From the sequence record SRR31156797_3202: a DNA stretch of 52,220 nucleotides, one strand, 5' to 3'. The notes beneath the pieces are model-generated. The model was not told where the DNA came from and did no database searches. It was given only the letters and a program-made list of their open reading frames with translations. This document shows positions 1 to 17,758 of the stretch, piece after piece (position 1 is the first letter of the stretch; every line of letters begins with the position of its first letter). Position numbers and translations under genes: made by a program.

Positions 1-57
1 GCCACCGACTTGATAGACACCTTTTAGTTAGACAAAATGACTAACAGAGAGGTGCTT

Positions 58-336
58 ATGAGCAGTAAAAGATATCCAGAAGAATTTAAAATTGAAGCAG
101 TAAAACAGATCACTGAAAAAGGTCATAGTGTGGCTGATGTCGCCAACCACTTAGGAACAACGACCCATAGTCTTTATGCTTGGGTGAAGCGCTATGGTCC
201 CGACTCCTCCCAACACCAAGCTCAATCTGATGAAAATGCCGAAATTCGTAGGCTTCGGAAAGAACTTCAAAGAGTCACCGAAGAGCGAGATATACTAAAA
301 AAAGCCGCGGTGTACTTCGCAAGCCAGTCCGACTGA
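58..336 (+). CDS. IS3 transposase OrfA (HTH)
   Basis: MSSKRYPEEFKIEAVKQI...SVADVANHLG...LYAWVKRY...EIRRLRKELQRVTEERDILKKAAVYFA. RBS AGAGG precedes the ATG at 58. Confidence 0.92.
   Translation: MSSKRYPEEFKIEAVKQITEKGHSVADVANHLGTTTHSLYAWVKRYGPDSSQHQAQSDENAEIRRLRKELQRVTEERDILKKAAVYFASQSD
297..304 (+). other. Programmed -1 ribosomal frameshift slippery site A7G
   Basis: CTA AAA AAA GCC near the end of orfA; orfB is in the -1 frame. Confidence 0.8.
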
Positions 337-1208
337 GGTACGCCTTTATTAAAGCCAATCAGTCTGTTTGGCCTGTTCGACGGAGGTCTAACGTCCTTGG
401 GGTTCATCCCAGTGGTTATTATGCCTGGCTAAAACACCCCGACAGCAAACAAGAGAAACGGCGTAAATACCTTCTCGGACTTATCAAACAGTTTTGGCTG
501 GAATCTGGTGGAGTTTATGGCTATCGAAAGATATACAGTGACCTACGAGATGAAGGTGAATCCTGTGGGATCAATCAAGTGCATCGCTTGATGAAACGAG
601 AAGGCTTACAGTCACAACGAGGGTATCGTAAACCCAGAGCTAAAGCAGGCACTGAACATTTCATTTCAGCTAATAAATTAGCCAGAGAGTTCAACCCAAC
701 GGCTCCAAACCAATCGTGGGTGACCGATATTACCTATATAAAAACACATGAAGGTTGGTTGTATCTTGCCGTTGTTGTCGTTCTTTTTTCTAGAAGAGTG
801 ATTGGTTGGTCGATGAAAAGTCGAATAACTAAAGAGTTGGTTTTGGATGCGCTTTTAATGGCTATATGGCGTCGTTCTCAGAGCCAAAAGGTGCTCGTGC
901 ATTCAGATCAAGGCAGTCAGTATACGAGTCACGACTGGAGCAAGTTCTTAAAGCAACATGGACTGGAAGCCAGTATGAGTCGTCGAGGGAATTGTCACGA
1001 TAATGCTGTGGCAGAAAGTTTTTTCCAGTTACTGAAAAGAGAGCGAGTTAAACGAAAAATCTACTCTACGCGGGAAGATGCTCGCATGGATATCTTTGAA
1101 TATATTGAGATGTTCTACAACGTAAAACGCAGGCATGGTCCCAATAATCAATTGTCGCCTGTAGAGTATGAGAAGCAATATGAGAGAAGACTAACTAGTG
1201 TCTACTGA
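300..1208 (+). CDS. IS3 transposase OrfB (DDE integrase core), expressed as OrfAB by -1 frameshift
   Basis: Frame is open from ~300 (KSRGVLRKPVRLRYAFIK...GVYGYRKI) to 1208. Motifs WVTDITY, HSDQGSQY and DNAVAESFF supply D-D-E. Confidence 0.92.
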   Translation, partial: KSRGVLRKPVRLRYAFIKANQSVWPVRRRSNVLGVHPSGYYAWLKHPDSKQEKRRKYLLGLIKQFWLESGGVYGYRKIYSDLRDEGESCGINQVHRLMKREGLQSQRGYRKPRAKAGTEHFISANKLAREFNPTAPNQSWVTDITYIKTHEGWLYLAVVVVLFSRRVIGWSMKSRITKELVLDALLMAIWRRSQSQKVLVHSDQGSQYTSHDWSKFLKQHGLEASMSRRGNCHDNAVAESFFQLLKRERVKRKIYSTREDARMDIFEYIEMFYNVKRRHGPNNQLSPVEYEKQYERRLTSVY

Positions 1209-1359
1209 CTCGGTGGCTATTCAGAATTTGGTAATTATCACAAACTTCCTAACTGATATTTGATCTACATTATTCCATATTGCTACTTCGCTTTATTCTT
1301 TTGACATACTCAATCTCATGTTACTTTATGATTTATCTTCTATACATTTTCTACTATTT

Positions 1360-1713
1360 ATGAACAATCTAAAAAGATCATTACTTTTAGTTATGTACAA
1401 AGACATGGCTTCAAATCTCACAGACTTTGATGGCATAGCTAAATTAGAACTATTTATCAATGAGGTAGAGTCTAAACGCTTACCTCTTTTTAAATTAGCA
1501 CTAGAATCCATATATGTGCTTGTATATATAAGATTTTTACTGCTCTTCGGTCGAAAAGCGAACAGTGTACAATCCGATGAAATAATACCTTTTTGTCTAG
1601 GGCTAAGGACCTCAAGGCTTTCTTTTTTTAATGACTATTATCAATATTTATATAGTTTTGTAACTTTGTATCATAGAACGGAAAATAAAAATGAAAGTTG
1701 CTGTAATAGGTAG
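1360..1713 (+). CDS. Small hypothetical protein; probable partner or split N-terminal domain of the downstream GMC oxidoreductase
   Basis: ORF overlaps the GMC start by 23 nt. C-terminal pattern LLLFGRK...SRLSFFNDYYQYLYSFVTLYH resembles helical domains found N-terminal to or upstream of GMC enzymes. Start uncertain (1318, 1360 or later). Confidence 0.55.
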   Translation: MNNLKRSLLLVMYKDMASNLTDFDGIAKLELFINEVESKRLPLFKLALESIYVLVYIRFLLLFGRKANSVQSDEIIPFCLGLRTSRLSFFNDYYQYLYSFVTLYHRTENKNESCCNR

Positions 1714-3061
1714 TGGGCCAGGTGGAGCCGTAGTCGCTTCTAAACTACTAGAAGCCGGTTATAACATAGACCTTTATGAAAAGGGTGACCTTTATGAGCA
1801 GCATGAACTTGAACCGTTCTCTAAAGATGAGCTGTTAAAAAAATATAATGGGGCAGGCATATCTGTTGCATTAGGAAACCCAAAGATAAAATTTGTTGAA
1901 GGCTCATGCTGGGGAGGAGGCTCCGAAGTAAATGCAGGCCTATATCATGAGATAAATGAGGTAATGATTTCATCATGGGCGGAAGAGTTTTTGATCGAAA
2001 ATTTCTCTAAAGAATCTCTTGCTAAGCACTTTCAGCAAACTAGAGATACTGTGAATGTAGAATACTCTCAACAACCGTTGTCACGAACATCTCTCAAACT
2101 CAAGGAAGGTGCTGAACAACTTGGTTGGAAAGTAATTGAGGTACCTCGCTGGTTTAAAAATGGTGTGAGACAATCTATGACGGAAACTTATCTTACATCA
2201 GAAATACGATCGAAAATCATCAAAGAAAAAGTTATAAGTATCAAAAAAAATGAGCACAGTTGGGTTGTGTCTAGCTCACAAACGACTAGAGCATATGACG
2301 CTGTATTTTTATGCGCTGGAGCAATAGAAACTCCATCTCTTCTTCAAAAAAGTAAGCTATCTAAGAATGCAGGTAAGAAAATCTTTATGCATCCTTCTTT
2401 AAAAATAGTAGCGGAGTATCCTGAAGAAATAAATAGTCTTTCCCCAGCTATTGGAATCCATCAGGTAAAGGAGTTTTCACCGGATATCAGTATGGGTTGC
2501 TCTATTAGCACCCCAGAGTATATTTCACTCGCTTTAAACGAGAATGGCACGTTCCACAACGAAATGTCCCAATCTCGCTTTAAAACAATGGCAATATATT
2601 ATGTCATGATAAATGCTGGGAAAGGCAGCATCACGAACATACCTTTCATCGACAATCCAATCGTAAAATATAAGATGACTAACTGTGAACTTGATAAACT
2701 CCAGCACGGCACAATGAAATTATGTCACCTACTATTTGAATCGGGAGCTAAATCATTGTACCCAGCGATATCGAAAATAGGGAAACTGAGCAACCCAGAT
2801 GAAATTGTTACCTTAAAATCAAGATTTAAGCGTAAAAATCTCAATTTAATGACTATACACTTGATGGGAAGTTGCCCATTTGGTGAGGATATATCTAAAA
2901 CGGTTGCCAACTCATACGGTGAAGTACATTTTCACAAAAACCTATTTATCGCCGATTCCTCTTTGATGTGCTCCGGACTCGGCGTAAACCCACAAGGTAC
3001 AGTTATGGCTCTGGCGAGCAGAGTTGCAGAACATTTTATCAAAAGAAATTCTAAGGACTAA
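1691..3061 (+). CDS. GMC-family FAD oxidoreductase
   Basis: N-terminal VIGSGPGG, GSCWGGGSEVNAG, LCAGAIETPSLLQKS, C-terminal HLMGSCPFG and ADSS...GVNPQGTVMALA. Confidence 0.9.
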   Translation: MKVAVIGSGPGGAVVASKLLEAGYNIDLYEKGDLYEQHELEPFSKDELLKKYNGAGISVALGNPKIKFVEGSCWGGGSEVNAGLYHEINEVMISSWAEEFLIENFSKESLAKHFQQTRDTVNVEYSQQPLSRTSLKLKEGAEQLGWKVIEVPRWFKNGVRQSMTETYLTSEIRSKIIKEKVISIKKNEHSWVVSSSQTTRAYDAVFLCAGAIETPSLLQKSKLSKNAGKKIFMHPSLKIVAEYPEEINSLSPAIGIHQVKEFSPDISMGCSISTPEYISLALNENGTFHNEMSQSRFKTMAIYYVMINAGKGSITNIPFIDNPIVKYKMTNCELDKLQHGTMKLCHLLFESGAKSLYPAISKIGKLSNPDEIVTLKSRFKRKNLNLMTIHLMGSCPFGEDISKTVANSYGEVHFHKNLFIADSSLMCSGLGVNPQGTVMALASRVAEHFIKRNSKD

Positions 3062-3065
3062 GTTC

Positions 3066-4124
3066 ATGTACAAATATGCCATCACTGGTGCTTCTGGCTG
3101 GTTGGGCACAACCTTAATTAAATCTATACTTAACGGTTTAGATGACATTGAAGAAGTTAATCAACTTCCACATAATCAGAAAATTAAATGTTTATTATTG
3201 CCCGGTGAAAGAATAATTGAGCCACTTAACTCAGATAATAGAATTGATATTGTATATGGCGATTTAAGGTCAGAAAAATCCATAAATGACTTTCTTTATA
3301 ACGCCGAAGACGCGGTTCTTATACACACAGCTGGCATAATTCACCCAAACAAAAAAGTCTCTGAGTTCTATGCTATTAACCTAGAGGCAAGTGTTAACCT
3401 AGTCTCAAAAGCAAAACAATATGGCTTAAAGAAAGCTGTTATTTTGTCCTCTAACTCACCAATTGGATGTAATCCCACTAGGGATCATCGTTTCACTGAA
3501 AACTCGCCTTATAACCCATACATGCATTATGGTAGATCAAAAATGCAAATGGAGCAGAGCCTTATATCTCAGTTTTCTGAAGACTTTCCTATAACAATTA
3601 TAAGAGCACCATGGTTTTATGGGCCGCACCAGCCTGAGAGGCAACTTACTTTTTTCCAAATGATACGTGACGGCAAGTGCCCGATTGTGGGGGATGGCAA
3701 TAATGTACGCTCAATGGTTCATATAGAAAACTTGGCTCAAGGAATTCTGCTTTCTGCTCAGAATAAAGCTGCAAACAATGAAATATTCTGGATTGCAGAT
3801 GAGAGAGCCTACACAATGAACGAGATTGTAGATACAATTGAACAATTGCTTGAGGAAAAATTCAATGTTGCTTGCAAGAAAAAAAGGTTACAACTACCAA
3901 GTACAGTATCTGAGATAGCATTTGTGTTGGATTTTTTGATTCAAAAAATAGGGCGCTATCATCAAAAAATACATGTCCTTTCAGAAATGAACAAAAATAT
4001 AGCCTGTGATATATCTAAGGCAAAGAATGTATTGGGATATAAACCGAAGCATAATCTTAGAGAAGGAATTGTCAAATCTATAAAAGAATATTTGGACTCT
4101 AGTAATTATCCACATAATGAATAA
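3066..4124 (+). CDS. Extended SDR, NAD(P)-dependent epimerase/dehydratase/reductase (3-beta-HSD-like)
   Basis: TGASGWLG, HTAGIIH, SSNS, YGRSK (YxxxK), RAPWFYGP. ATG at 3066 lies just after the GMC stop. Confidence 0.88.
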   Translation: MYKYAITGASGWLGTTLIKSILNGLDDIEEVNQLPHNQKIKCLLLPGERIIEPLNSDNRIDIVYGDLRSEKSINDFLYNAEDAVLIHTAGIIHPNKKVSEFYAINLEASVNLVSKAKQYGLKKAVILSSNSPIGCNPTRDHRFTENSPYNPYMHYGRSKMQMEQSLISQFSEDFPITIIRAPWFYGPHQPERQLTFFQMIRDGKCPIVGDGNNVRSMVHIENLAQGILLSAQNKAANNEIFWIADERAYTMNEIVDTIEQLLEEKFNVACKKKRLQLPSTVSEIAFVLDFLIQKIGRYHQKIHVLSEMNKNIACDISKAKNVLGYKPKHNLREGIVKSIKEYLDSSNYPHNE

Positions 4125-4659
4125 AATAATCATTGTAGTACCTGATGGCATTGTAACTAAAGGCGATGAAGTTATTCCATCTTTTGTATACAGGTCCGCA
4201 TTAGATGCGGCGAGTAAATACCATGAAAATTTGCCTATATATTTAGCTCCAGCTAATAAATTTAATACAAAATTTTACGAACAAGAAATTGGAGAGAAAT
4301 ATCTAAGAGAACATGGATGTAAAAAGATAATACACACTCCAACGTTCATTAGTGATAAATATATAGACACCTGGGGAAACGCCATACTATTAAAAGATTA
4401 CTTGGCTAGCACGAAAAACATGAATGTATTAACAACACAAGTAGTACTAGTTAGTGGCTATAAACACATGAGAAGAGCTTTTTATTGCTTTTCTGAAGCT
4501 GGATTTAACATTGTAGAGAAAGTTAGCACATCATATAAAATCATACCAAATGAGAAAATGCCTGTAAGACTATTTTATTACAAGTACAGTCCTTTACATT
4601 GGGTCTATGAATTGTTTGCTTTTGGGTTTGAAATAATAAAAAATTTTTTTAGGAGTTAA
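4117..4659 (+). CDS. YdcF/ElyC/SanA-like DUF218 protein
   Basis: DTWGNAILLK and VVLVSGYKHMRRAFYCF match the DUF218 T.ENA and LVTS..HM.RA motifs. Overlaps the upstream stop. Confidence 0.75.
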   Translation: MNKIIIVVPDGIVTKGDEVIPSFVYRSALDAASKYHENLPIYLAPANKFNTKFYEQEIGEKYLREHGCKKIIHTPTFISDKYIDTWGNAILLKDYLASTKNMNVLTTQVVLVSGYKHMRRAFYCFSEAGFNIVEKVSTSYKIIPNEKMPVRLFYYKYSPLHWVYELFAFGFEIIKNFFRS

Positions 4660-4660
4660 A

Positions 4661-5683
4661 ATGCACTTAGTTACTGGTGGTTCAGGTTTTCTAGGTAACC
4701 TGATAGTACAAAGGTTAGTAGCAGCGGGCGAGAAAGTTCGTGTTTTAGATATTTGGGATTCCCCAGATAGACCAGATGGAGTGGAATATTACGAATGTGA
4801 TATCCGCGACCGAGAAAAGGTAGCGATAGCTATGAAAGGTGTAGAGATCGTGCATCACAACGTTGCACTAGTGCCTCTAACTAAATCCGGAGATAAGTTC
4901 AGGGAAGTAAATGTTAACGGTAGCATGATTGCAGCAGAAGAAGCTGGTAAAGCAGGTGTAAAGGCGTTTATCCATATGAGTTCCAGTGCACTTTATGGTG
5001 TGCCTAAATGTCCGATTACGTCTCAAACCCCTACTCAACCTATAGAGATCTATGGGCAAGGAAAGCTCGATGGAGAACTTGCAGCGGAAGAAGCTTGTAA
5101 ACGTGCAAATGTTCCATTTATTTCAATTCGACCAAGAACAATATTGGGGGAAGGACGACTAGGTATATTTCAAATTTTATTCCAGTGGATTAGCGAAGAT
5201 ATCAACGTTTACACCATTGGCGATGGTAATATAAAGTTCCAGTTTGTTCATGCTCACGATTTGATGGACTTCTATATGCTGGCCTTAGAGAAAAATCAAC
5301 CTGGCAAGTACAATGTCGGTGCAGTCGAGTTCAATACTCTTCGTAATGATCTTGAATGGTTGATAGACGGTGTTAAATCAAAATCGAAAGTTAAGTCACT
5401 TCCGACAAGGTTATCGATTGGTAGTCTTAAATTTTTAGATAAAGTTGGCCTTTCGCCTTTAGCCCCATGGCACTACCTAACTTATCACAAGGAGTTTTAT
5501 TTTGATGTGACTCCTCTGACTGATATGGGCTGGAGGCCTAAATATTCTAATAGAGACATGTTACTTGAGTCATACAAATGGTTCATAGATAATCAGAAAA
5601 ATTATATAGAACAAGATGGTGCTTCCGCTCACAGAAAATCGGTTAAGCAAGGTGTATTAAAGATCATTAAATTTTTCTCGTAA
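4661..5683 (+). CDS. Extended SDR, NAD(P)-dependent epimerase/dehydratase/reductase
   Basis: TGGSGFLG, SSSALYG, YGQGK (YxxxK), IRPRTILG, QFVHAHDL. Confidence 0.88.
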   Translation: MHLVTGGSGFLGNLIVQRLVAAGEKVRVLDIWDSPDRPDGVEYYECDIRDREKVAIAMKGVEIVHHNVALVPLTKSGDKFREVNVNGSMIAAEEAGKAGVKAFIHMSSSALYGVPKCPITSQTPTQPIEIYGQGKLDGELAAEEACKRANVPFISIRPRTILGEGRLGIFQILFQWISEDINVYTIGDGNIKFQFVHAHDLMDFYMLALEKNQPGKYNVGAVEFNTLRNDLEWLIDGVKSKSKVKSLPTRLSIGSLKFLDKVGLSPLAPWHYLTYHKEFYFDVTPLTDMGWRPKYSNRDMLLESYKWFIDNQKNYIEQDGASAHRKSVKQGVLKIIKFFS

Positions 5684-5691
5684 CTTATTCA

Positions 5692-6033
5692 ATGACTATT
5701 AATCCTCTATTATTAGTTCTTTTCGCTGGCATCCTAACAGCTTTAGGTAATATATGCTTGAAGTTATCTAGAGCCGGCGAGACTGACCTGACGTTTATAG
5801 AAAGCCTGTTTAACCCTATGTTTATTCTTGGCTTGGTATTCTACGCAATAAACGTTGTTATTTTCGCAAAGTCCTTAGAAAAACTATCACTTACCGTAGC
5901 GTATCCAATGCTAACTGGAATAGGCTTTCTCCTCGTTTCTACATTTTCAGTTTTTGTATTAAGTGAGACATTAACTGTGGCTCGGATTATCGGAGCTTTA
6001 CTAATTATTATTGGACTAATTTTAATTTCTTAA
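5692..6033 (+). CDS. SMR/DMT-family 4-TM protein, ArnE/ArnF-like lipid-linked sugar flippase candidate
   Basis: 113 aa with four hydrophobic helices, LSLTVAYP and E....RIIGALLIIIG motifs. Lacks the EmrE-type TM1 glutamate. Confidence 0.78.
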   Translation: MTINPLLLVLFAGILTALGNICLKLSRAGETDLTFIESLFNPMFILGLVFYAINVVIFAKSLEKLSLTVAYPMLTGIGFLLVSTFSVFVLSETLTVARIIGALLIIIGLILIS

Positions 6034-6041
6034 GGAAGATA

Positions 6042-6881
6042 ATGTACATATCTGGAATGGTAAAAATAGTACGGCCTAAGCAATGGATTAAAAATATTTT
6101 TGTTTTTTCGCCGCTAATCTTCTCAGGTGAATTTTTATATTTAAGTTCAATCTTGAAGTCTTTAGAAGCATTTTTGTTTTTTGTCATAGCATCTTCAGCA
6201 ACTTATGTTCTTAACGACATTCGAGATATTGATTCTGACAAAAAACATCCTGTAAAGTCTCTTCACCGGCCTTTGGCTAGTGGAGAGCTGCCTCTATCCT
6301 ATGCATATTTTTTATTGTTTTCACTCTATGCATTATTATTATTAAGTATCTATATTAACTTATCGGTTGGCGTAGTTATTATATGCTATTTAGGCCTCAA
6401 TTACTTATACTCATTTTGGTTAAAAAATAAACCTGTATTAGATATCTTTACTATCGCATTTGGTTTCGTACTTAGAGTATATGCGGGAGCTGTTGCTCTA
6501 GAGGTACCGGTGTCATCCTGGATGTTTATAACAACGCTATCACTAACGTTATACCTAGCAACAGTTAAAAGACGCCAAGAGCTGCTCTCATCTGGAAGCA
6601 AAAGTAGAAAAGTACTTCAACTATACACACTTCCTTTGATAGAAAGATACGCTGAAATGGCCGCAACATGCGCTATTATGTTCTATAGCATCTTTGTAAT
6701 GTCTGAACGACCTGAAATGGTCTCTACCATACCACTCGTGCTATTTGGTTTGTTCCGGTACTGGTTTGTTGTAGAAGCAATGAATGGGGGAGAATCCCCT
6801 ACCGATATATTAATATCTGATAAACCACTCGTGCTAACTGTCATATCCTGGATTACATTGTGTGCATACTATATTGTCTAG
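6042..6881 (+). CDS. UbiA-family polyprenyl-phosphate phosphoribosyltransferase (decaprenyl-phosphate phosphoribosyltransferase-like)
   Basis: RPKQWIKNIFVF, YVLNDIRDIDSDKKHPVK..RPLASG, YSFWLK..PVLD, GFVLRVYAG, KRRQEL, GESPTD. No N-terminal HAD domain. Confidence 0.92.
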   Translation: MYISGMVKIVRPKQWIKNIFVFSPLIFSGEFLYLSSILKSLEAFLFFVIASSATYVLNDIRDIDSDKKHPVKSLHRPLASGELPLSYAYFLLFSLYALLLLSIYINLSVGVVIICYLGLNYLYSFWLKNKPVLDIFTIAFGFVLRVYAGAVALEVPVSSWMFITTLSLTLYLATVKRRQELLSSGSKSRKVLQLYTLPLIERYAEMAATCAIMFYSIFVMSERPEMVSTIPLVLFGLFRYWFVVEAMNGGESPTDILISDKPLVLTVISWITLCAYYIV

Positions 6882-7019
6882 GATAATCAATGCAAACTAT
6901 CTCTCTATGATGCATCTCCGTAATTGTCACATAAATGCCTAATAAAGTATTTGGGGGAGTACAATTTAAAATTATTCGTATTAATAATTATTAGCGCTAG
7001 CCAAACTGGACATATGTAT

Positions 7020-7737
7020 TGCTGAGTAGCTATATTTTTAAATACCTTCTCAGCAATTTTCTTCGTTTCTTTATCTTTCGGGTGTATATATACACCATCA
7101 TGCTAAAAACGACTTAGTTCTAAGTTTTAGGTAGGATAAATATCGCCAATATAAACATGTTGCGCATTGTTTTGCTCGCGTAATTATTATAACTTTATCT
7201 ACATGAACGCTCCTCTAGTAAGTAGATAAGCAAAGAACATCAAGTTAAGAATAAGAGAAAGCATTATTAAATAGACCCAGTAATGATTTCTCTAGATCCT
7301 TAGTCTTTCCTATTCGATCTGGAACATTATCACCCATCTGGATAATATTTGTTCTGGTTTTTAGAGTAATTTAATTTCTTAATTATCGATAGAACCTTTG
7401 TAACGGATCTGAATCAATTTCTAAAGGATAGATATTGCTAACGTAAGCTTTATAAGTAGGAATATTTAGCAACTTCAAAAATTGATGAGAATAATCATTA
7501 CTTCTATGTGATGTGACCGCTATCCCATAATCACCAAACCAGCCGATTTTACTCAAGGGAGCATGATAGGTTAAGCTATTTCCAAGCATCAAGATATCAG
7601 GCACAATGTCAGAAGATTCTGGCGATGAAAAGGTTGTTAAAGTTTTCCCTAAATAGTCCATGTGGTTATAATTAGCATACCCAAAAGGAATAAAACTAAT
7701 CATAATTAGTAAACTTAGAATAAATTTAATAAACCAT
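7020..7737 (-). pseudogene. Decayed secreted SGNH/GDSL hydrolase
   Basis: Fragments in shifting frames: signal-like N-terminus, LGNSLTYHAP..IGWFGDYGIA, IIQMGDNV, CLSTY*R, HDGVYIHPKDKETKKIAEKVF. Several stops and frameshifts. Confidence 0.8.
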
Positions 7738-7988
7738 ATGTCCTTACGTTTATATATAAGTCAATATTTAATAGCAGTCAGACTTAGTTAATAAATGTAT
7801 TACTCTGCACATTTATTCCGATTTTAATTACGATAATAATGTATTTGATAAGATGTCCTTTACTTTATAGCCTCGCGACTTTAACTTAGCAACAACTAGT
7901 TCTTCGCAGACTTTCACATCTAGATGACTATTTGAAAACTAGCGAAAAATAAATATCTTACGTTCAACCCATTTTGTAAAAGCTAATA

Positions 7989-8555
7989 TCACACTCGATC
8001 GCCAGCACCTTTACCTAAAACAGTTTGGACAATGTATACGAAGTAGCGCTTAAGCGTCATAGTCTGAATCATATTTTTGTCCCACTCAGCCAAAAGCTCA
8101 GGTGTAGACATGTCAATTTCATTCACTTGAGCCAAGCCAGTGATTCCAGGCCTAACATCGAAGACCCCTTTCTCTTGTCTAGCATCAATAAGTTCTTGCT
8201 GGTTAAACAGGCACGGACGAGGACCAACAAGGCTCATTTCCCCCTTAAGAACATTAATCAACTGTGGAAGTTCATCAAGCTTAGTTTTGCGAAGAAAACC
8301 ACCTAGCTTTGTTACCGAAGCAGCACCGACTAAATGAGTTGCCACTGACTGGGTATCAACTGGCATTGTCCGGAATTTAATCAAGGTGAATGGTTTTTTG
8401 TTTCGCCCTACACGAACCTGCCTAAACACTGGTGAACCAGTGTCAAAATAGCCAATCACAATGATAATGACGAGCAATGGCCAAAGGAACAACAAACCCA
8501 AAAAAGAGAACATAAAATCAAAGAATCTAATCACTAACAACCTCGCCTGAGTCAA
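7989..8555 (-). CDS. Initiating phosphoglycosyl transferase (bacterial sugar transferase, WbfU-like)
   Basis: [49 protein letters not shown]. Start may be a few codons downstream. Confidence 0.92.
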
Positions 8556-9511
8556 CTACTTTTTGTTTTAAGAAAATGAGCCACTGTATCATCGATTCCT
8601 TGCTCAAATGAAACTGGTGGTTTCCAGTCCAAACACTCTACGGTATCACTAATATCAACTTGTAAGTTACCAAACACTCTTTTCGCAACATCGCGCCTTC
8701 CTATAACGCTCGCAGCCTTCTCGATCCATGATGAAGGTATGGCTAACATGCGATTAGGCTTACCCATTGAAACGGCGAGACGACTTAACAATAAAGAAGT
8801 AGAGACATCAAAATTATCAGAAACTAAAAAAACTTGCCCTGAAGCGTTTGGACTAGTACAGCATGTTAAAATCAAATCGGCTAAGTTATCTACGTACACG
8901 AGACTCCTTCGATTTTTTATACCTCCGAGCGGTAATGGAACACCTTTAAATACTAGCTCCATCATTGAGTAAAAGTTAGCCTTAACACCCGGACCATAGA
9001 CTAGTGGTGGGCGTATAACAACAATTTCCAACCCTGTTCTTTTTGATATTTCCATCAAACCCTGTTCAGCTTCATACTTGCTTAGCCCATAAGGATCAGT
9101 TGGAACATTGATATCTTTTGCTGAAAAAGGGTGCCCCAGAGCAGACTGCTCACCATTTACTTTAATGGTGCTCAAAAAAAGGAAACGTTTCACACCTGAC
9201 TCTGCAGCCTTTTGAGCAAGATTTAAAGTCCCTTGTGTATTGGTTGAGCGATATTCTTCAAGCGCATTTTCCGATGAACCTTTCATCTGATGGACTCGCG
9301 CAGCGCAGTGCACCACACACTCGATTCCATCAAATGCTCCAGCCCAATCCGTCTCTCCATCTATACTTGGAACTAAGAATGACTGGGAGTGTAATATGCC
9401 CTCATCTGGTAATGTTCTATAGACCGACTTAACGGTCCAGCCTTGCTTATTGGCTAATTTAACAACTCGACTACCAACAAAACCCGAACTTCCGGTGACC
9501 AATATTTTCAT
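8552..9511 (-). CDS. SDR, WbfT/WbpV-like UDP-4-keto-6-deoxy-HexNAc 4-reductase (often annotated UDP-glucose 4-epimerase family)
   Basis: TGSSGFVG, HCAARVHQM, LSTIKVNGE, YGLSKYEAE, RPPLVYGPGVKANF, NRRSLV. Confidence 0.85.
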   Translation of the reverse strand: MKILVTGSSGFVGSRVVKLANKQGWTVKSVYRTLPDEGILHSQSFLVPSIDGETDWAGAFDGIECVVHCAARVHQMKGSSENALEEYRSTNTQGTLNLAQKAAESGVKRFLFLSTIKVNGEQSALGHPFSAKDINVPTDPYGLSKYEAEQGLMEISKRTGLEIVVIRPPLVYGPGVKANFYSMMELVFKGVPLPLGGIKNRRSLVYVDNLADLILTCCTSPNASGQVFLVSDNFDVSTSLLLSRLAVSMGKPNRMLAIPSSWIEKAASVIGRRDVAKRVFGNLQVDISDTVECLDWKPPVSFEQGIDDTVAHFLKTKSS

Positions 9512-9579
9512 AACAATCCCACATATTGCAATTGTCCCACAACTTTAATTAAGTTTGGAACCTATCACTAGTACTTTAG

Positions 9580-10497
9580 CTAATAACATTTTCTCAAGAT
9601 ATAAGAAGATACAAGTCCTAAAGCCAATGACGGGAGTAACGTTAACGATCTAGTGACTAAAGCAGCTATCGCTGCAGTTTCTGCATCAATACCGACTTGG
9701 GTCAACAACCAACTCATACCTAGCTCAGTCGCTCCTATGCCACTAGGTATAAGTGAAAGAGCCCCTATTAAAAGGCTCAAACAGTATATACTGACAGCTA
9801 AACTCACATCGATGTATGTGTTCATTTCGTTCAATACAATGAAAAGAATAACCCCCTGAAAGAACCAAGCAAACAGGGATATTACACAGACCTTCATCGT
9901 TATCTTATACTTCCATAGCTTTGGCAGTTCTTTTAGAACATAATAAATTTTATAACGCTTAAACAAAGCACTAATTATTAAAATCGATCTTTTTACAACT
10001 ATTGGTAAAGTTATATAGGTAAGTACTATGAAAAATGCATTAAACCACTCAAGTTGTAAATAGAATGCACCTAGTAATAACACGCTTATTATATCAAAAA
10101 ATCTCTCTGAAACAAAACACCCTAAAGAGTACTCAAATGGAATAGAAAGAGGTTTCAGGAAAAATGAACGCATTAACTCTCCGGTCTTTCCTGGCGAAAC
10201 AGTGAAAGCAAACCCTGAAAAATATATCCAAACGTGATGCATTGTGGAGGAGTTTTCATCGTATAGCCTCATATATATCAACCATCGCCATACCCTCAAT
10301 AAGTAGCTTGCGATTATAAGACCAGAACATAAAAAAAGAGAAAAAACAGATATGTTTTGTATAAGGCTAACACTGCGTTCGAGTTCAAAAGACGAAATAT
10401 ATACAGTGACACCAACAAAGATCATAGCAAAAGATATATACAACTTTCGAATATGTGAGGATGCCTTCTCTAAATTCTTAGTTATATTAATCAACAT
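9580..10497 (-). CDS. UPF0104 / lysylphosphatidylglycerol-synthase-TM family flippase-like membrane protein
   Basis: YLLRVWRW, FTVSPGKTGELMR, SERFFD, LIPSGIGATE, TRSLTL. ATG at 10497 overlaps the upstream stop. Confidence 0.82.
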   Translation of the reverse strand: MLINITKNLEKASSHIRKLYISFAMIFVGVTVYISSFELERSVSLIQNISVFSLFLCSGLIIASYLLRVWRWLIYMRLYDENSSTMHHVWIYFSGFAFTVSPGKTGELMRSFFLKPLSIPFEYSLGCFVSERFFDIISVLLLGAFYLQLEWFNAFFIVLTYITLPIVVKRSILIISALFKRYKIYYVLKELPKLWKYKITMKVCVISLFAWFFQGVILFIVLNEMNTYIDVSLAVSIYCLSLLIGALSLIPSGIGATELGMSWLLTQVGIDAETAAIAALVTRSLTLLPSLALGLVSSYILRKCY

Positions 10498-10922
10498 TTT
10501 ATTAGCAAAGTTAGTATTTCTTTTGTCAACCAAGCTGAAAAAGAACCGGCAATAAGACCAGCTGCAATCTCCAATTTAGAGTGCCCTATTCTATCTCTTA
10601 GAGGCTTTTCAAATACACCTCTAACATCAAGCACATTAATTCGATAAGCATGATAACCTACTTGCTTTCTCAGGCTAGATGCATCCAAAGCAACGATGAA
10701 CGTCAATGCAACAGCAACGACAAAAGCTGGATTGCTCAATCCATCCTGTAGGGCTATGGCTGCAGCTGCACTGCTCACTATACTACTATGATTACTCGGC
10801 ATGCCGCCATACCCTATAAGATCAAATGCAAAACGGCCGGATACAATCGAATTAATCGTAAACTTCATTATTCCGGTAAACAACCAAGCCGCAAAAGGAG
10901 TTACCAAATAATAATAATCCAT
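10491..10922 (-). CDS. Divergent PAP2 family protein (DUF212)
   Basis: GGMPSNHSS, VALDASSLRKQVG, LRDRIGHSKLEIAAG. Confidence 0.88.
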   Translation of the reverse strand: MDYYYLVTPFAAWLFTGIMKFTINSIVSGRFAFDLIGYGGMPSNHSSIVSSAAAAIALQDGLSNPAFVVAVALTFIVALDASSLRKQVGYHAYRINVLDVRGVFEKPLRDRIGHSKLEIAAGLIAGSFSAWLTKEILTLLIKC

Positions 10923-10971
10923 ATATTATAAGCCCTTAATCCTCAAATTGGATACTATGATTGTATTTAAA

Positions 10972-12162
10972 CTATTCATCAGAACTTAAATCCACTTTCC
11001 ACATGCGGCTTTCCCATTGAGGATAAATAAGGAGTTCTTTAGTCTTTCCTTCTTTGAAAAGTTGGACCTGTTCACTCCATACACTCCATTCTTTTGAACT
11101 ATAATAACCATCAGCCGCGTTATAATATTTCACATACGAGACGTAAATATTCATGGCAAAGATGCAAATAATAGCAAATGACATATATATATTTTTCCAA
11201 GTAAAAGCCATTCTAGCCAGCATCAGGGAAAGCATTACACAAGTAGGATATGCATAACGTCCACCACCACCACCACCAATGGAAGTATATGACATCAGGA
11301 ATGTCAGAAATACTAGTGGGATGAGATAAAATAAAGCAATATTTCTAGATTCCTTATTTTCGGATGCAAAAAATGCCACAATCATTGCGACTGAGATAAC
11401 CGTAAATAGATCAACAGTCAACGGTGTGTGTGCATGCATATAAAAAAATGACATGCCGATTATCTTCACAAAATAATCATAACTAAGGTAGGCTCCTCGA
11501 GGTACATCAATTTGTATATTCGTTGGTTCAGATGTAACAACAGCAAATAACTGAATAACCGTAGTGAAGACTAAAAGAGAAAATATGGTGATATCAGGTT
11601 TACGCTTATATAAGTAAAATTTCAACAAGAAGAAAGGCGCCAACATATTTACCGGAGGACCAGATAGACCAGCGACCATTACTATAACAAGCCACTTTTT
11701 AGATATTTTTTCTAAGTCAGCAATCAAAAATAAGAATAAAACTATTAATAAATGAAACTGACTTGCCAACGTTTGAGAAAACACTTCAATCGTGAACCCA
11801 GAAAATAAAACTGCCACAAGCATCATTATTTTCGAACTCCACTGTTCAAAAGGCTTAACTTCGGAAAATAAGATGATATATGCCGGCAGCAACTGAATAG
11901 CGAAGGCAATAGCAGTCGTAACTACTGGCGCATATTTCAAATCAACAAATGTAGATAGATAGGTACTAATACTCGGGACAATAGAGTAATAACCTTGATG
12001 AAAACTAAATATAGCACTAACACCATTAAAATATGCATCCTTAAAATAGACGCTTGCCTCTTCAGCCCAAAACCTTGGTTCTATAAACAAGTTTACATCT
12101 TTGTTAATAAGCAGAAAAGCATATACAATAAAGGCGAATATCTTCCAGCTTATATACTTCAT
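10972..12162 (-). CDS. Polytopic membrane protein, probable GT-C glycosyltransferase (Gtr-like)
   Basis: About 10-11 hydrophobic segments. The first periplasmic loop EPRFWAEEASVYF...HQGYYSIVP carries an acidic pair. A late RY motif and a short C-terminal periplasmic tail (IYPQW) follow. Confidence 0.7.
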   Translation of the reverse strand: MKYISWKIFAFIVYAFLLINKDVNLFIEPRFWAEEASVYFKDAYFNGVSAIFSFHQGYYSIVPSISTYLSTFVDLKYAPVVTTAIAFAIQLLPAYIILFSEVKPFEQWSSKIMMLVAVLFSGFTIEVFSQTLASQFHLLIVLFLFLIADLEKISKKWLVIVMVAGLSGPPVNMLAPFFLLKFYLYKRKPDITIFSLLVFTTVIQLFAVVTSEPTNIQIDVPRGAYLSYDYFVKIIGMSFFYMHAHTPLTVDLFTVISVAMIVAFFASENKESRNIALFYLIPLVFLTFLMSYTSIGGGGGGRYAYPTCVMLSLMLARMAFTWKNIYMSFAIICIFAMNIYVSYVKYYNAADGYYSSKEWSVWSEQVQLFKEGKTKELLIYPQWESRMWKVDLSSDE

Positions 12163-12189
12163 TACAATTCCTTTACAACTATCAACTAG

Positions 12190-14094
12190 TTAATTAGTTT
12201 TCCAGACTAAATCTTCAATACCGCTCACTGGCTCAAAATCTGTCGGAGCAGACATCATTATACTTCTAATCTTCTCGTAATCTCGCTCGTGGCAGGCTAT
12301 ATCAAGATTTTTAATTAGTGCCATATACTCGAGCAATGGTAAATACTTCTCCGAAGCTGTCATAATACGGCCATGAGCTGTTGCCTCAACATTTTCGTCA
12401 CCGATTAACAGCTCTTCATATAGCTTTTCGCCTGGCCGCAAACCTGTGTAAATGATTTCTATATCTCCACTAGGATTGTCAGCATTTTTTACCTCCAATC
12501 CTGATAGATGTATCAAATTAGTTGCGAGATCAACAATTTTCACGGGTTCTCCCATATCCAAAACAAAAACATCCCCCCCTTTTCCCATTGATCCTGCTTG
12601 AATAACTAATTGTGCCGCTTCAGGTATCGTCATAAAGTAGCGAGTTATATCTGGATGAGTAACTGTTATAGGTAGTTTTTGAGCTATTTGTTTTTTAAAC
12701 AGTGGTATTACAGATCCCGACGATCCAAGAACATTACCAAACCTTACCATGCAAAAACGTGTTAAATGATTTGGGTATTGATCATTAGTTTCTGATAGAG
12801 CCTGCAAAGCTAGCTCCGCTAATCTCTTTGTCGTACCCATAACGTTCGTCGGTCTCACAGCTTTGTCTGTAGAAATAAGTACAAAAGACTCGACATTTGA
12901 TTCAATAGCAGCTTGTGCAGCATATAAGGTACCAAATACATTATTTCTAACGCCTTCCACAACGTTATTTTCAACTAGTGGCACATGCTTATAGGCTGCG
13001 GCATGATAAACAGTATTGACCTTGAAGTTCTGCATAATAACAATCAGTCGATGCTTTCTCTGAACAGAACCGAGGAATGGGAAAAGGTCTATGTTTAAGT
13101 TTTGACTCTGAATTTCGGACAAAAGTTCTTGATGAATTTTGTACAAATTAAACTCGGACACATCAAACAGTAATAGCGATTTAGGCCTATTCTTGATTAT
13201 CTGTCGGCAAAGTTCCGAACCAATGGATCCGCCAGCTCCAGTCACCAAAACTACTTTGCTTTTTATGTTTTTCTCCAATAGAGACTGCTGAGGTTCGACA
13301 GGTTCTCTTCCAAGTAAATCCTCAATCGCTACCTCTTTAATATCCTGTATCGTAGCTTTACCTTGTGCTATATCATTGATATCAGGGACGGTACGAATAT
13401 CTACAGACAGAGGTGCCAGTTTTTCGAGCACTTCTCTACGTTTTTGTCTTGAGGCATTAGGAATTGCTAGCAAAATAGTTTGAACGTTCTTCAATGAGAT
13501 TAGGTTTGATACTCTAGCTAAATTATGAACGGGTAACCCGAGCATATTCGAGCCACACAATGTTTCGTCGTCATCTATAAAACCTACAACGTTACTATCA
13601 GAAGAATTTTTAAGAGCAAGAGCTAATTGTCGACCAGATGAACCAGCTCCGAAAATTAATACATTAGGTGCACTTCGACCTATGGTCTGAATCACCAATC
13701 CTCTAAATAACAACCTTACTCCACTCAATAGTAAAATTAGTGACACACAATAAATGAAAGGTATAGAACGCGGTAATGAAAACGAAAAATAATATGAGTA
13801 AAGCGCCAAAAAAGAAGAAGAAACTACCGCACCGGAGAAAATAACGATTAAAATCTGATATCCAATATAACGTAAAACAGCTTTATATAAGCCTATCTTA
13901 TTAAAAACAAAAACGCTGGATACTATCAAAAGTAAAATTGTAGCAATACCTTCGAAGCTATTAATAAAAACAATTTCGTCCAATCTAAGCCATAATGAAA
14001 TATGAAAGCAAAGCAATAGTATTATTGTATCAATACATATACTAATAACCTTCTTTTTGAATCGTGACATTACACAGAAGTCGTTCAAGCTCAA
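12190..14094 (-). CDS. Membrane-anchored UDP-GlcNAc 4,6-dehydratase (WbfY/WbpM/PglF family)
   Basis: Four N-terminal TMs, IFGAGSSG, EDLLGREPV, TGAGGSIGSELCRQI, HAAAYKHVP, STDKAVRPTNVMG, RFGNVLGSSGSV, GLRPGEKLYEEL. Confidence 0.93.
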   Translation of the reverse strand: MSLNDFCVMSRFKKKVISICIDTIILLLCFHISLWLRLDEIVFINSFEGIATILLLIVSSVFVFNKIGLYKAVLRYIGYQILIVIFSGAVVSSSFLALYSYYFSFSLPRSIPFIYCVSLILLLSGVRLLFRGLVIQTIGRSAPNVLIFGAGSSGRQLALALKNSSDSNVVGFIDDDETLCGSNMLGLPVHNLARVSNLISLKNVQTILLAIPNASRQKRREVLEKLAPLSVDIRTVPDINDIAQGKATIQDIKEVAIEDLLGREPVEPQQSLLEKNIKSKVVLVTGAGGSIGSELCRQIIKNRPKSLLLFDVSEFNLYKIHQELLSEIQSQNLNIDLFPFLGSVQRKHRLIVIMQNFKVNTVYHAAAYKHVPLVENNVVEGVRNNVFGTLYAAQAAIESNVESFVLISTDKAVRPTNVMGTTKRLAELALQALSETNDQYPNHLTRFCMVRFGNVLGSSGSVIPLFKKQIAQKLPITVTHPDITRYFMTIPEAAQLVIQAGSMGKGGDVFVLDMGEPVKIVDLATNLIHLSGLEVKNADNPSGDIEIIYTGLRPGEKLYEELLIGDENVEATAHGRIMTASEKYLPLLEYMALIKNLDIACHERDYEKIRSIMMSAPTDFEPVSGIEDLVWKTN

Positions 14095-14133
14095 AATTAC
14101 CTACCCACTACTTAGTACAAGCCAAAGTTATCA

Positions 14134-14880
14134 TTACATTCTTTTTATTGGGAATATTAACATTCGACCGAATATAATCAAAGCACCAACAACGAACCCT
14201 AACACGCCACCAGTAAAAATGGATAGCACTTTATTGGGTTTTATCTCGACAGGAGGGTTTGTTGCAGAAACTAGCAAAGATAATATTTTAAATTCACTAT
14301 TTTCAAGTAATGACTCTTTTATCAATAATTTACTTTTAATATCTAAAAAATCTGATTCTATAATATCAGAATCAAGATCTGATGTATTTATCCTTTCTAT
14401 AGCTTTAAGCGCTAAAGTAATTTTTTCTAATTCTCTTTCTTTTATTCCAGCGTTCGCATTGTCGACAAACTGCTTCACTACTTTGTATGGCAAGCCTTTT
14501 TCAATTGAGCTCATGGAAACAGATAGAATTCCATTTCCTTTTTTTGTAATTGTAAGGCCCGAAAATGATGATACATCACTATTCTGATTAGCTACTTTAG
14601 TAAAAAAGGTCGCACTCTTAAGATAATTCAGAATGCTATCGAGATATTCTGGTCCATTTAACTCCTGTAGGCTGTATGGGTCATTAACCACTTCTAGTTC
14701 AGAACTAGATACATACACCGTTGGCTTGTTGTAAACAAGGAATGCCGAAACTGATGAAAACAACAACATAAGAACGAGTAAAATAGTCTTACCATTCCAT
14801 AATGAAAAAATTATTTCTTGTAATCCTATTTCTTGTTCAAGAGATTTTCCATCGAAGGTAGTTTGAGTATTAGCTTTCAC
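14134..14880 (-). CDS. Short Wzz-like polysaccharide co-polymerase
   Basis: EIGLQEIIFSLWNGK before TM1; PPVEIKPNK and GGVLGFVVG around TM2. Confidence 0.75.
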   Translation of the reverse strand: MKANTQTTFDGKSLEQEIGLQEIIFSLWNGKTILLVLMLLFSSVSAFLVYNKPTVYVSSSELEVVNDPYSLQELNGPEYLDSILNYLKSATFFTKVANQNSDVSSFSGLTITKKGNGILSVSMSSIEKGLPYKVVKQFVDNANAGIKERELEKITLALKAIERINTSDLDSDIIESDFLDIKSKLLIKESLLENSEFKILSLLVSATNPPVEIKPNKVLSIFTGGVLGFVVGALIIFGRMLIFPIKRM

Positions 14881-14937
14881 TTTATATCCTATCTAAAATA
14901 TTGAAACCAAAAACGTCGAAAATAAAAGATGTAGATT

Positions 14938-15987
14938 CTAATATAAGTCCACGTACTTTTTCGTAATCACTTTCCATGTATATCTTGTTTCTGCAACCTC
15001 TAGCATTTCATTATTGCTTCCTGAATGACGCTCATTTAAAAGATCACATAGATCATATTCCGAACTAAAATAGAGTGCTTTATGATCAGTTGTATACTTA
15101 TTGAAAACACAGTCAAACGCATAGACTTGCTTCCCAAAGTGCATAATTTCGACTAAAGACGGATTCGTTCCGCCGACAGAGTGGCCATGTATATATCCCT
15201 TACAACCCGAACGATATTTATACAAAACATTTAAATCATAAATAGGGTCAATAATTTCAATATTGTCAAAGTGATTATACTTACTCTTTAGCTCCACTCC
15301 ATAACTACTACTATCCCAATTACCGATAAACTTAATGTTTTCTGAACTTTTTGAAAACGCCTCTAAAACCAAGTGGACATTGTTCTCTGGTTCAATCCTG
15401 CAAACAGATAAAAAATAATCACCTAAAATCTTACTTTCTGAACAATCACTGTTTTTATTTGACAACGCATGCTCACCTCCATAGGCAATCACCTTAGAGT
15501 GTATATTGTATTCACTCTTTACATAGTCATAAATACCCTGATTATCGGTTACGATTAGATCAGAAAATCTAATTGCGATCTTTTCAGAAAATTTTAAGAA
15601 CCTAGATGCGAACTTGCTCCACTTGTCCCTTTTCCATTCAATTCCATCTATATTTGTTATAACTTTTTTATTAGAAACTGCTTTGAAAACCGGTAAAAAA
15701 ACACACCCAGAAACCCCTAAAATTAAAATAGCATCATACTTCTTATAAATACACATTATCAGTGATGTAATATCATAGATAATACTAGATATGCCATTTG
15801 CAGAGAAAGGAAGGTATATTAGCTTTGCTCCGTTGTACTCGCGGTTTTTTTTAGCGTAGGTCTTAGATGAACAAAAAACTGTATATTCATTCTCTTTATC
15901 ATTTTTGACAATATTATCAACCAGTGTTTCCCACCCACCATAACAAGCTGGTAAACCTACGGTACCGACAATAGCTATTTTTTTCAT
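14938..15987 (-). CDS. GT4 glycosyltransferase with DUF1972 domain (WchF/Cps2T-like rhamnosyltransferase)
   Basis: IAIVGTVGLPACYGGWET, NIDGIEWKRDKW, CRIEPENN, HGHSVGGTNPSLVE. ATG at 15987 forms an ATGA overlap with the upstream gene. Confidence 0.85.
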   Translation of the reverse strand: MKKIAIVGTVGLPACYGGWETLVDNIVKNDKENEYTVFCSSKTYAKKNREYNGAKLIYLPFSANGISSIIYDITSLIMCIYKKYDAILILGVSGCVFLPVFKAVSNKKVITNIDGIEWKRDKWSKFASRFLKFSEKIAIRFSDLIVTDNQGIYDYVKSEYNIHSKVIAYGGEHALSNKNSDCSESKILGDYFLSVCRIEPENNVHLVLEAFSKSSENIKFIGNWDSSSYGVELKSKYNHFDNIEIIDPIYDLNVLYKYRSGCKGYIHGHSVGGTNPSLVEIMHFGKQVYAFDCVFNKYTTDHKALYFSSEYDLCDLLNERHSGSNNEMLEVAETRYTWKVITKKYVDLY

Positions 15988-16934
15988 CGACGTCTCTCCT
16001 TTATAGCCATGAGTGGCATAATTATAATTAGTGGCACTGAATAGCGCATAAAAGATGTATAACCAGGCGCCAACATAGAAATAAATCCTAATACAAAATA
16101 TATCTGATAAGGAAACATTAATTTTCGATAAGTAATCAATGACCAAATCTGGCTCATAATTATACCTATCGACACTGCAATATACGCCAAAGCAGGACTC
16201 AGAGCTGAAAATGTTCCAGTCATAGTAATAACCGGCCATATTGATGCTCTAATGAAAGTCCCATACCATCCATACTCTTGAAAAGTGGGTATCTGATCAA
16301 AATCTCTAAAAACCATGTTTGTTGCATTTTGTCTATCAATAAAGTCGAACAGGTGACCACCAAAAAATGGAATAAACAAAACCACAAAAAAAACAAACAT
16401 CCATAAATTCTTGATTTTTCTTAAATTTACAGTAGCAGATATATACATTATTCCTGCCACTCTGAAAAGTATGAGAAACAATAGAACTATATAACGATAA
16501 AAACTACTCCACTTACAAAAAAGAATAACAGTAAAAAATATAATAAACGTATCTTTCAATACGTGTATGGATAAATGTAGCCTATATGGATTAAAAACAA
16601 CAAACACGACAAATAAAATAAAACTTGAAATCGTATATGTGGTATATATGTTTCTATAGTATCTAACCATTATAATATTAGTAATCGCATAAACAAAAAC
16701 GTTTAACGATGTCAAAACCCACAGCGAACCATTAAATAGATAAGCCACTAAATAATAAAAATGATTAACTACAAGATACGGACTCTGAAATATAATTGAA
16801 ACTGTTTCATAATATTTCTGTGTATAAGTAATTGCATCAGGATGAAAATCCCAACCAATTCCAACAACCCTTTCCATTAAAAGAACTGAAAAAGATAAAA
16901 AAACTGAAAGTACAAAAACAGCACTATCTTTCAT
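15984..16934 (-). CDS. Polytopic membrane protein, candidate Wzy-like O-antigen polymerase
   Basis: 316 aa, highly hydrophobic, with first loop GWDFHPDAITY, LKDT and a late RY. Located in a Wzz-containing cluster. Confidence 0.5.
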   Translation of the reverse strand: MKDSAVFVLSVFLSFSVLLMERVVGIGWDFHPDAITYTQKYYETVSIIFQSPYLVVNHFYYLVAYLFNGSLWVLTSLNVFVYAITNIIMVRYYRNIYTTYTISSFILFVVFVVFNPYRLHLSIHVLKDTFIIFFTVILFCKWSSFYRYIVLLFLILFRVAGIMYISATVNLRKIKNLWMFVFFVVLFIPFFGGHLFDFIDRQNATNMVFRDFDQIPTFQEYGWYGTFIRASIWPVITMTGTFSALSPALAYIAVSIGIIMSQIWSLITYRKLMFPYQIYFVLGFISMLAPGYTSFMRYSVPLIIIMPLMAIKERRR

Positions 16935-17724: not shown

Positions 17725-17758
17725 CGCTAGTTTCCTAAAGTGTCAATTAGAGCATTTT

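Follow-up and report, generated by a model that had tools for sequence, protein, structure and literature searches.

A candidate pathway for pentofuranose side-chain glycosylation, with a GMC-type redox module, in and beside an O-antigen operon

Could ten genes in and beside an O-antigen operon make a lipid-linked pentofuranose and attach it to the O chain without DprE1 and DprE2? The question is raised by sequence record SRR31156797_3202, a stretch of 52,220 nucleotides (nt) that is referred to here as the window and for which an earlier note had proposed such a system. All ten open reading frames (ORFs) are present with the families named there, and every frame is intact. A + strand block encodes a small ORF product, a GMC flavoprotein oxidoreductase, two short-chain dehydrogenases/reductases (SDR-A and SDR-B), a DUF218 protein, an SMR-family protein and a UbiA-type polyprenyl-phosphate phosphoribosyltransferase, and a − strand trio encodes a GT-C-fold membrane protein, a DUF212 protein and a UPF0104 protein. 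Leaving the identity of the sugar aside, these genes probably constitute a whole pathway for periplasmic side-chain glycosylation of the O antigen. As the note had also stated, neither DprE1, DprE2 nor HAD, and likewise no GtrA, was found in the window by Pfam or with the DprE1 and DprE2 of a related locus (L135) as queries; the GMC enzyme, its small subunit and the two SDRs likely replace DprE1/DprE2 and reshape undecaprenyl-phosphate-ribose.

In the proposed pathway, UbiA would join ribose-5-phosphate from phosphoribosyl pyrophosphate (PRPP) to undecaprenyl phosphate (Und-P), a step that is strongly indicated, and DUF212, judged by its position, would take off the 5-phosphate. The GMC enzyme and small subunit would oxidize a ring hydroxyl, after which SDR-A and SDR-B would epimerize or reduce the sugar; SDR-B would set the xylo configuration at C3, as ORF13 of Citrobacter youngae does, and a second inversion would yield D-lyxofuranose if at C2 or L-arabinofuranose if at C4. 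The SMR protein would flip the donor, the GT-C-fold protein would transfer it to the O chain (the fold is modelled and the acceptor suggested by gene position), and DUF218 might hydrolyze stalled Und-P-pentose, freeing the carrier. Gene content, motifs, the predicted GT-C fold and co-occurrence are observed, and each activity is inferred from them.

The entry step draws on UbiA itself (6042-6881, + strand), which has no HAD domain. It scores 205.9 bits on NF008978, about 1 bit below the cut-off of 207, and matches the mycobacterial enzyme of PDB 8j8j with an E value of 1.6e-37. The NDxxDxxxD and RxxE motifs of polyprenyl-phosphate phosphoribosyltransferases are present, and N58, D59, D62, D66, R177 and E180 are the counterparts of ORF15 residues mutated by Kelly 2024 (PMC11127046, cited here and below for the part available to us). 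The residues and the PDB match thus support the PRPP-dependent synthesis of a lipid-linked pentofuranose that the note had predicted.

The second step is suggested by the surroundings of UbiA. Of 351 genomes surveyed from the bacterial family to which the window apparently belongs, 16 have this UbiA type, and 20 kb was fetched per locus. Nine of the 16 proteins are 54-61% identical to the window UbiA, and in these close relatives DUF212 stands directly behind UbiA in nine of nine, UPF0104 follows the UbiA-DUF212 pair in seven, and DprE1 is present in seven; GMC occurs in none of the 16 loci within the 20 kb fetched. Across 82 UbiA loci, HAD alone accompanies 49 and DUF212 alone 13, and the two are never found together. 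Other phosphatase-like genes occupy the HAD/DUF212 slot in haloarchaeal and Streptomyces UbiA loci. DUF212 (10491-10922, − strand; PF02681, divergent PAP2) is therefore likely, from its gene context, to be the 5-phosphatase, as had been supposed; it gave no sequence match in the PDB. If PsPA7_6245 is a DUF212 protein, this role is already in print. A search of 59 genomes from three genera turned up no HAD-UbiA. Broken UbiA/DprE cassettes, with a frameshifted ubiA and fragmented neighbours, occur in two relatives (L135:9432-10294 and L128:7926-12168).

In a tree built on 47 of 78 UbiA sequences, the DUF212-linked proteins, that of the window included, form one clade (support 1.0). Because some members of this clade have DprE1/2, others have the GMC module and others lack redox genes, the redox module appears to be exchangeable, and the window is best read as a chimera-like, family-typical UbiA-DUF212-UPF0104-GT-C cassette with an exchanged redox module. 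Small subunit, GMC, SDR-A and SDR-B stand where DprE1/2 would be.

The GMC enzyme (1691-3061, + strand; PF00732/PF05199) is one of 1911 homologues at E ≤ 1e-40. H390 and N433, which we take to be the catalytic pair of the family, are invariant in 36 sequences. The nearest solved enzymes, cholesterol oxidase (E 2e-21) and cellobiose dehydrogenase, are distant; the GMC enzyme is predicted to oxidize a hydroxyl of the lipid-linked pentose. A GMC search of genome contigs returned a single unrelated locus, and one of viral contigs a single weak match. The small ORF (1360-1713, + strand; 117 amino acids, no Pfam family) is likely a helical small subunit of this enzyme. Its family lies directly upstream of, or is fused to, GMC in 68 of 81 loci, and in nine of the 13 loci without it GMC lies ≤1.2 kb from a contig edge; among the homologues listed, 39 of 120 GMC proteins carry it as an N-terminal fusion. 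One family member resembles gluconate 2-dehydrogenase subunit 3 (PF13618; feature score 0.92, template modelling score 0.70-0.74). The window copy has an equal-length homologue at 88% identity and matches its own family weakly (8.6 bits, a score that none of 1000 shuffles reached; hhalign probability 8.5%).

SDR-B (4661-5683, + strand) is 31% identical over 324 amino acids, its full length, to the ORF13 orthologue of Escherichia coli O99 (E 2e-41), which serves as a stand-in for the C. youngae protein; SDR-A (3066-4124, + strand; an extended SDR, PF01370) reaches 23%. The orf15-14-13-12 cassette was located in E. coli O99, where the start of orf13 is nearly identical in DNA to the orf13 primer of Kelly. 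In a tree of 49 of 135 SDR sequences (86 dropped at random), SDR-B and the ORF13 orthologue share one clade (local support 0.99), SDR-B in a sister subgroup, and SDR-A forms a separate clade (support 1.0). On sequence, SDR-B thus appears to be distantly related to ORF13, the C3 epimerase of Und-P-ribose that leads to xylofuranose. S108, Y131 and K135 of SDR-B are invariant, as are S129, Y155 and K159 of SDR-A in 58 homologues. In three plasmid loci examined, UbiA has a more distant relative of SDR-B next to it and no GMC; searches of 401 enterobacterial genomes, and of E. coli by DNA, gave no SDR-B. An intact orf15-14-13-12 set in E. coli O99:H6 CU42ET-1 (L159:10730-15572) and in five other E. 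coli genomes predicts xylofuranose side chains there.

Which sugar would result? Two ways to alter lipid-linked ribose are known, one SDR for xylofuranose and DprE1/2 for arabinofuranose; multi-epimerase loci are left open in the available part of PMC11127046, where a single SDR suffices for xylofuranose and the GT-C enzyme accepts either pentose. Since one SDR suffices, the fact that three redox enzymes are kept points to more than a single change. Double inversion to D-lyxo- or L-arabinofuranose is accordingly our tentative choice, at somewhat less than an even chance, and the data do not separate C2 from C4. It is unlikely that GMC and one SDR invert a single carbon, giving D-arabinofuranose (in the manner of DprE1/DprE2) or D-xylofuranose, with the other SDR accessory. 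Such a scheme would fit a module that takes the place of DprE1/2 within a single UbiA clade, with one GT-C family serving both, and would fit the draft genomes G073 and G211, in which GMC is accompanied by SDR-B alone. It is harder to reconcile with the sufficiency of one SDR for xylofuranose and with the retention of both SDRs in 21 of 24 well-flanked loci; moreover, SDR-A, found on nine plasmids and in three of 301 genomes, always has GMC and SDR-B alongside (12 of 12).

More doubtful again is a product oxidized by GMC at C5 or another carbon without back-reduction, i.e., an altered pentose such as a uronic acid, ketose or deoxy sugar. Many GMC enzymes act on primary alcohols, and choline, alcohol and hydroxymethylfurfural oxidases are among the PDB matches; the best PDB matches of SDR-A are dTDP-glucose 4,6-dehydratases. 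All these matches are distant, however, the small subunit resembles those of gluconate 2-dehydrogenase-type sugar dehydrogenases, and SDR-B keeps Asp30, presumably typical of NAD-bound epimerases. Apiose was rejected by reasoning, as it needs a carbon migration from the furanose.

Transfer by a GT-C enzyme, the last step that the note had foreseen, is supported by structure prediction. The 396-amino-acid protein (10972-12162, − strand; no Pfam family) folded poorly as a single sequence (predicted local distance difference test [pLDDT] score of 44) and reached a pLDDT of 90.9 when modelled with 120 homologues. The top 14 structural matches (VIA) are all GT-C enzymes (Z 13.8-8.9, root mean square deviation about 5), led by AglB (Z 13.8), Pmt1/2 (13.6), ALG12 (13.6), AftA (13.4) and ArnT (13.2); the top five align 317-349 residues. 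PRFWAEE at 29-35, whose acidic residues E34 and E35 follow helix 1, and R302/Y303 are conserved across the 120 homologues, R302 invariantly. The GT-C profile found no sequence match in the PDB. Judging by the model, the protein is likely a GT-C enzyme of an unnamed family that transfers the pentose to O antigen; in L135, DprE1-DprE2 is followed immediately by a 39% identical orthologue. Membership in GT136 was rejected after comparison of the 120-sequence profile with the E. coli O99 ORF12 orthologue (probability 0.2, E 0.28).

Roles can also be suggested for most of the parts that the note had been unable to place. The small ORF and the second SDR likely find places as GMC subunit and ORF13 relative, and DUF218 (4117-4659, + strand; PF02698) as a hydrolase like those termed Upr. 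In the available part of bioRxiv 10.64898/2026.10.14.759067, E. coli DUF218 proteins hydrolyze undecaprenyl-diphosphate glycans via a Thr-His-Arg-Glu cluster. T85, H117, R120 and E165 are invariant in six of six module-linked copies and match that cluster in their spacing and conservation rather than in a direct alignment with UprA/B/C. A simple scan gave no hydrophobic segment, and DUF218 is predicted to be a soluble Upr-like hydrolase that clears lipid-linked intermediates. The SMR protein (5692-6033, + strand; PF00893) shows weak ArnE/ArnF matches below cut-off and 30% identity over 67 amino acids to the ORF14 orthologue; by analogy it is likely the flippase of the lipid-linked pentose. The flippase-like UPF0104/LPG_synthase_TM protein (9580-10494, − strand; PF03706) remains without a place: tblastn found it in none of 80 metagenomic GMC loci, Pfam gave a partial copy in L068, and a role as the required flippase was rejected because nearly all GMC loci do without it.

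Do the parts travel together? The note had expected their co-occurrence elsewhere, and this holds for UbiA with the trio in close relatives and widely for UbiA, GMC and the SDRs. None of the 108 other loci examined has the exact ten-gene set, and a conserved ten-gene unit was rejected on that count. The best 80 of 558 metagenomic GMC loci contain SDR-A in 58, UbiA in 55, SDR-B in 46, SMR in eight, DUF218 in five and DUF212 in three, and UbiA with both SDRs occurs in 21 of the 24 that have at least 3 kb on each side. In seven loci (L023, L026, L032, L038, L048, L052 and L053) an apolipoprotein N-acyltransferase gene follows SDR-B, which could reflect synteny within a lineage or could point to lipoprotein glycosylation.

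The arrangement of the window itself was described by the note as two facing operons within the O-antigen operon. The + strand genes, with gaps of -23, 4, -8, 1, 8 and 8 nt, appear from that spacing to form one operon, and this operon and the trio do converge. They do not face each other directly: 2.7 kb lies between them, with a phosphoglycosyl transferase gene (7989-8555), a WbpV-like epimerase gene (8552-9511) and a 1.1-kb stretch of low guanine-plus-cytosine (GC) content. Only the trio belongs to the O-antigen operon, after wzz and wbpM and between wbpM and the WbpV-like epimerase and phosphoglycosyl transferase genes; the + operon lies beyond the operon's end, 150 nt downstream of an IS3-family element (37-1208, orfA and orfB). 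These features, i.e., opposite strands, the 2.7-kb distance and IS3 at the left edge, together with the absence of the ten-gene set from the 108 other loci, would suit unrelated passengers or an acceptor other than O antigen, with the + operon feeding another glycan, lipid A-core or protein and the trio a relic of a lost DprE1/2 cassette. We regard that explanation as improbable. The window UbiA falls within the DUF212-linked clade, two other loci (L013 and L015) hold SDR-B, SMR, UbiA, DUF212, small ORF, GMC and SDR-A in a single run, all ten frames are intact, and runs X2 and X6 each contain fragments of both blocks, if on separate contigs.

Several observations nevertheless weigh against one pathway with double inversion. 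UbiA is not in the operon of the trio. The exclusion of DUF212 and HAD reflects one UbiA clade, hence one evolutionary event and not 13, and 20 of the 82 UbiA loci have neither gene. The 80 GMC loci include near-duplicates, and many are short. The three exceptions among the 24 well-flanked loci are L008 and L081, where UbiA and GMC have no SDR nearby, and L078, where GMC and both SDRs have no UbiA for about 10 kb to the left or right. That GMC and DprE1 are together in none of 109 loci speaks for the pathway, but the count is biased by locus selection. SDR-B is only 31% identical to the ORF13 orthologue and has SSSALY in the active-site strand versus STDMTY. G073 and G211, with GMC and SDR-B but no SDR-A, leave the SDR partner of GMC undecided. 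Finally, lyxofuranose is reported in no solved glycan according to the available part of Kelly 2024 (PMC11127046), an unexpected absence given how common the module is.

Further features of the window and its relatives were recorded. The O-antigen operon also carries rmlBADC, a rhamnosyltransferase-like gene and wzz, and two ORFs of no family (15984-17724, − strand), one of 316 amino acids, membrane rich and probably Wzy, and one of 266; neither Wzx nor Wzm/Wzt was recognized among the 53 ORFs scanned. We take the locus to be Vibrio-like from its gene order and from rph-pyrE DNA that is 77-84% identical to four genomes. GC content is 0.31-0.40 in the two blocks versus 0.46-0.47 in rmlB and rph. 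The IS3 element may have moved the + operon or may influence its expression; promoter and terminator scans were at chance (45 versus 42.2 expected and 6 versus 6.7). The 1.1-kb gap holds an orphan ORF of 106 amino acids (7383-7703, − strand) with no Pfam match, possibly a gene remnant, whose GNSLT stretch we take to resemble an SGNH hydrolase fragment. One contig is identical to positions 1-18000 and is probably the source DNA of the window itself. At L078:7580-13505, the small ORF, GMC and SDRs stand beside a GT2 polyprenyl-phosphate-sugar synthase-like gene and a PIG-V/PMT-like (GT-C-like) protein, and a lipid-linked hexose may be a further substrate of the module.

The GMC module is uncharacterized but has already been glimpsed in print, and the window is an intact variant of a known pathway. 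The novelty claimed by the note was thus overstated: Fig. S12 of PMC11127046 already shows UbiA, GMC, the small ORF, two SDRs, SMR and GT-C as a candidate locus of unknown glycan in Rhizobium sp. CCGE531, labelled "Choline dehydrogenase," "Hypothetical," epimerases, PRP-PPPRS and GT-C, with no function assigned in the part of that paper available. No published characterization was found in the literature searched, a search whose coverage excluded most subscription papers. The additions made here are the SDR-B-ORF13 kinship, the DUF212/HAD exclusion, the Upr tetrad of DUF218 and the likeness of the small ORF family to gluconate dehydrogenase subunit 3. The module is common (the 1911 GMC homologues, rhizobial symbiosis plasmids, cyanobacteria and, in one phylum, three to five of the 301 genomes sampled). 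The window copy is compact and intact, its host is of marine type and probably culturable, and DprE1/2 sister cassettes are available as controls; testable roles also follow for DUF212, for a subgroup of DUF218 proteins and for a GT-C family that has no name yet. In full, the proposal would be a third widespread route, in which a two-subunit GMC dehydrogenase and two SDRs invert two carbons to give surface D-lyxofuranose, so far absent from solved glycans, or PRPP-derived L-arabinofuranose; DUF212 would be its phosphatase, a GT-C enzyme of unnamed family its transferase, and an Upr-like hydrolase in the cytoplasm would free the carrier. The proposal is speculative, and we think it rather doubtful as a whole.

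Among known systems, that of C. youngae O1/O2 (ORF15 PRP-PPPRS, ORF14, ORF13 and GT136 ORF12, as described in the available part of PMC11127046) shares with the window the UbiA catalytic residues, an SMR-like transporter, a GT-C enzyme, an ORF13-related SDR and an O-antigen locus. In contrast to it, the window has DUF212 in place of a HAD domain, a GT-C protein that does not match GT136, a host locus that looks Wzz/Wzy-type and not ABC-transporter type, and the additional GMC, small subunit, SDR-A, DUF218 and UPF0104. Azospirillum B510 carries on a plasmid a close ORF13 relative facing a different GMC (weak 4Fe-4S motif), GT9 and UPF0104 (L146:6995-11936), and a haloarchaeal plasmid (L145:3978-9547) with a GT-C-like gene, an SDR-B relative, UbiA, a PHP phosphatase-like gene and UPF0104 is a candidate archaeal pentofuranose system.

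The GMC module is carried by the CCGE531 plasmid and by pNGR234a of Sinorhizobium fredii NGR234, about 6.6 kb from nodS, among nine rhizobial plasmids (L002, L147; H1-H9) on which the acceptor could possibly be Nod factor or a surface glycan. The CCGE531 and pNGR234a loci have SDR-B, SMR, small ORF, GMC, a large membrane protein, SDR-A and UbiA in common with the window, at 26-50% protein identity, but HAD is fused to UbiA, the 658-amino-acid membrane protein is unrelated by BLAST to the window GT-C, and DUF212, DUF218 and UPF0104 are lacking. The window DUF218 shares the conserved Thr-His-Arg-Glu residues of Upr as given in the available part of bioRxiv 10.64898/2026.10.14.759067; unlike Upr it shows no membrane anchor and is probably cytoplasmic, and its presumed substrate, a monophosphate-linked monosaccharide, lies outside what that part of the preprint treats. 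Another multistep pentose-tailoring set, at L141:8903-16109, combines HAD-UbiA, DprE1, DprE2, a second pair (amine-oxidase-like FAD protein and SDR), GtrA and UPF0104. The DprE1/DprE2 D-arabinofuranose pathway is known from mycobacteria, from Pseudomonas (PsPA7_6245-6251) and from cassettes in the window's own family (L127-L135); its DprE1 is of the FAD_binding_4 type and its DprE2 is a classical SDR. Neither DprE1, DprE2 nor GtrA is in the window, but the entry step and the logic of flavoprotein plus SDR are common to this pathway and the window, and the L127-L135 cassettes share UbiA (54-61% identity), DUF212, UPF0104 and, once, the GT-C family with the window.

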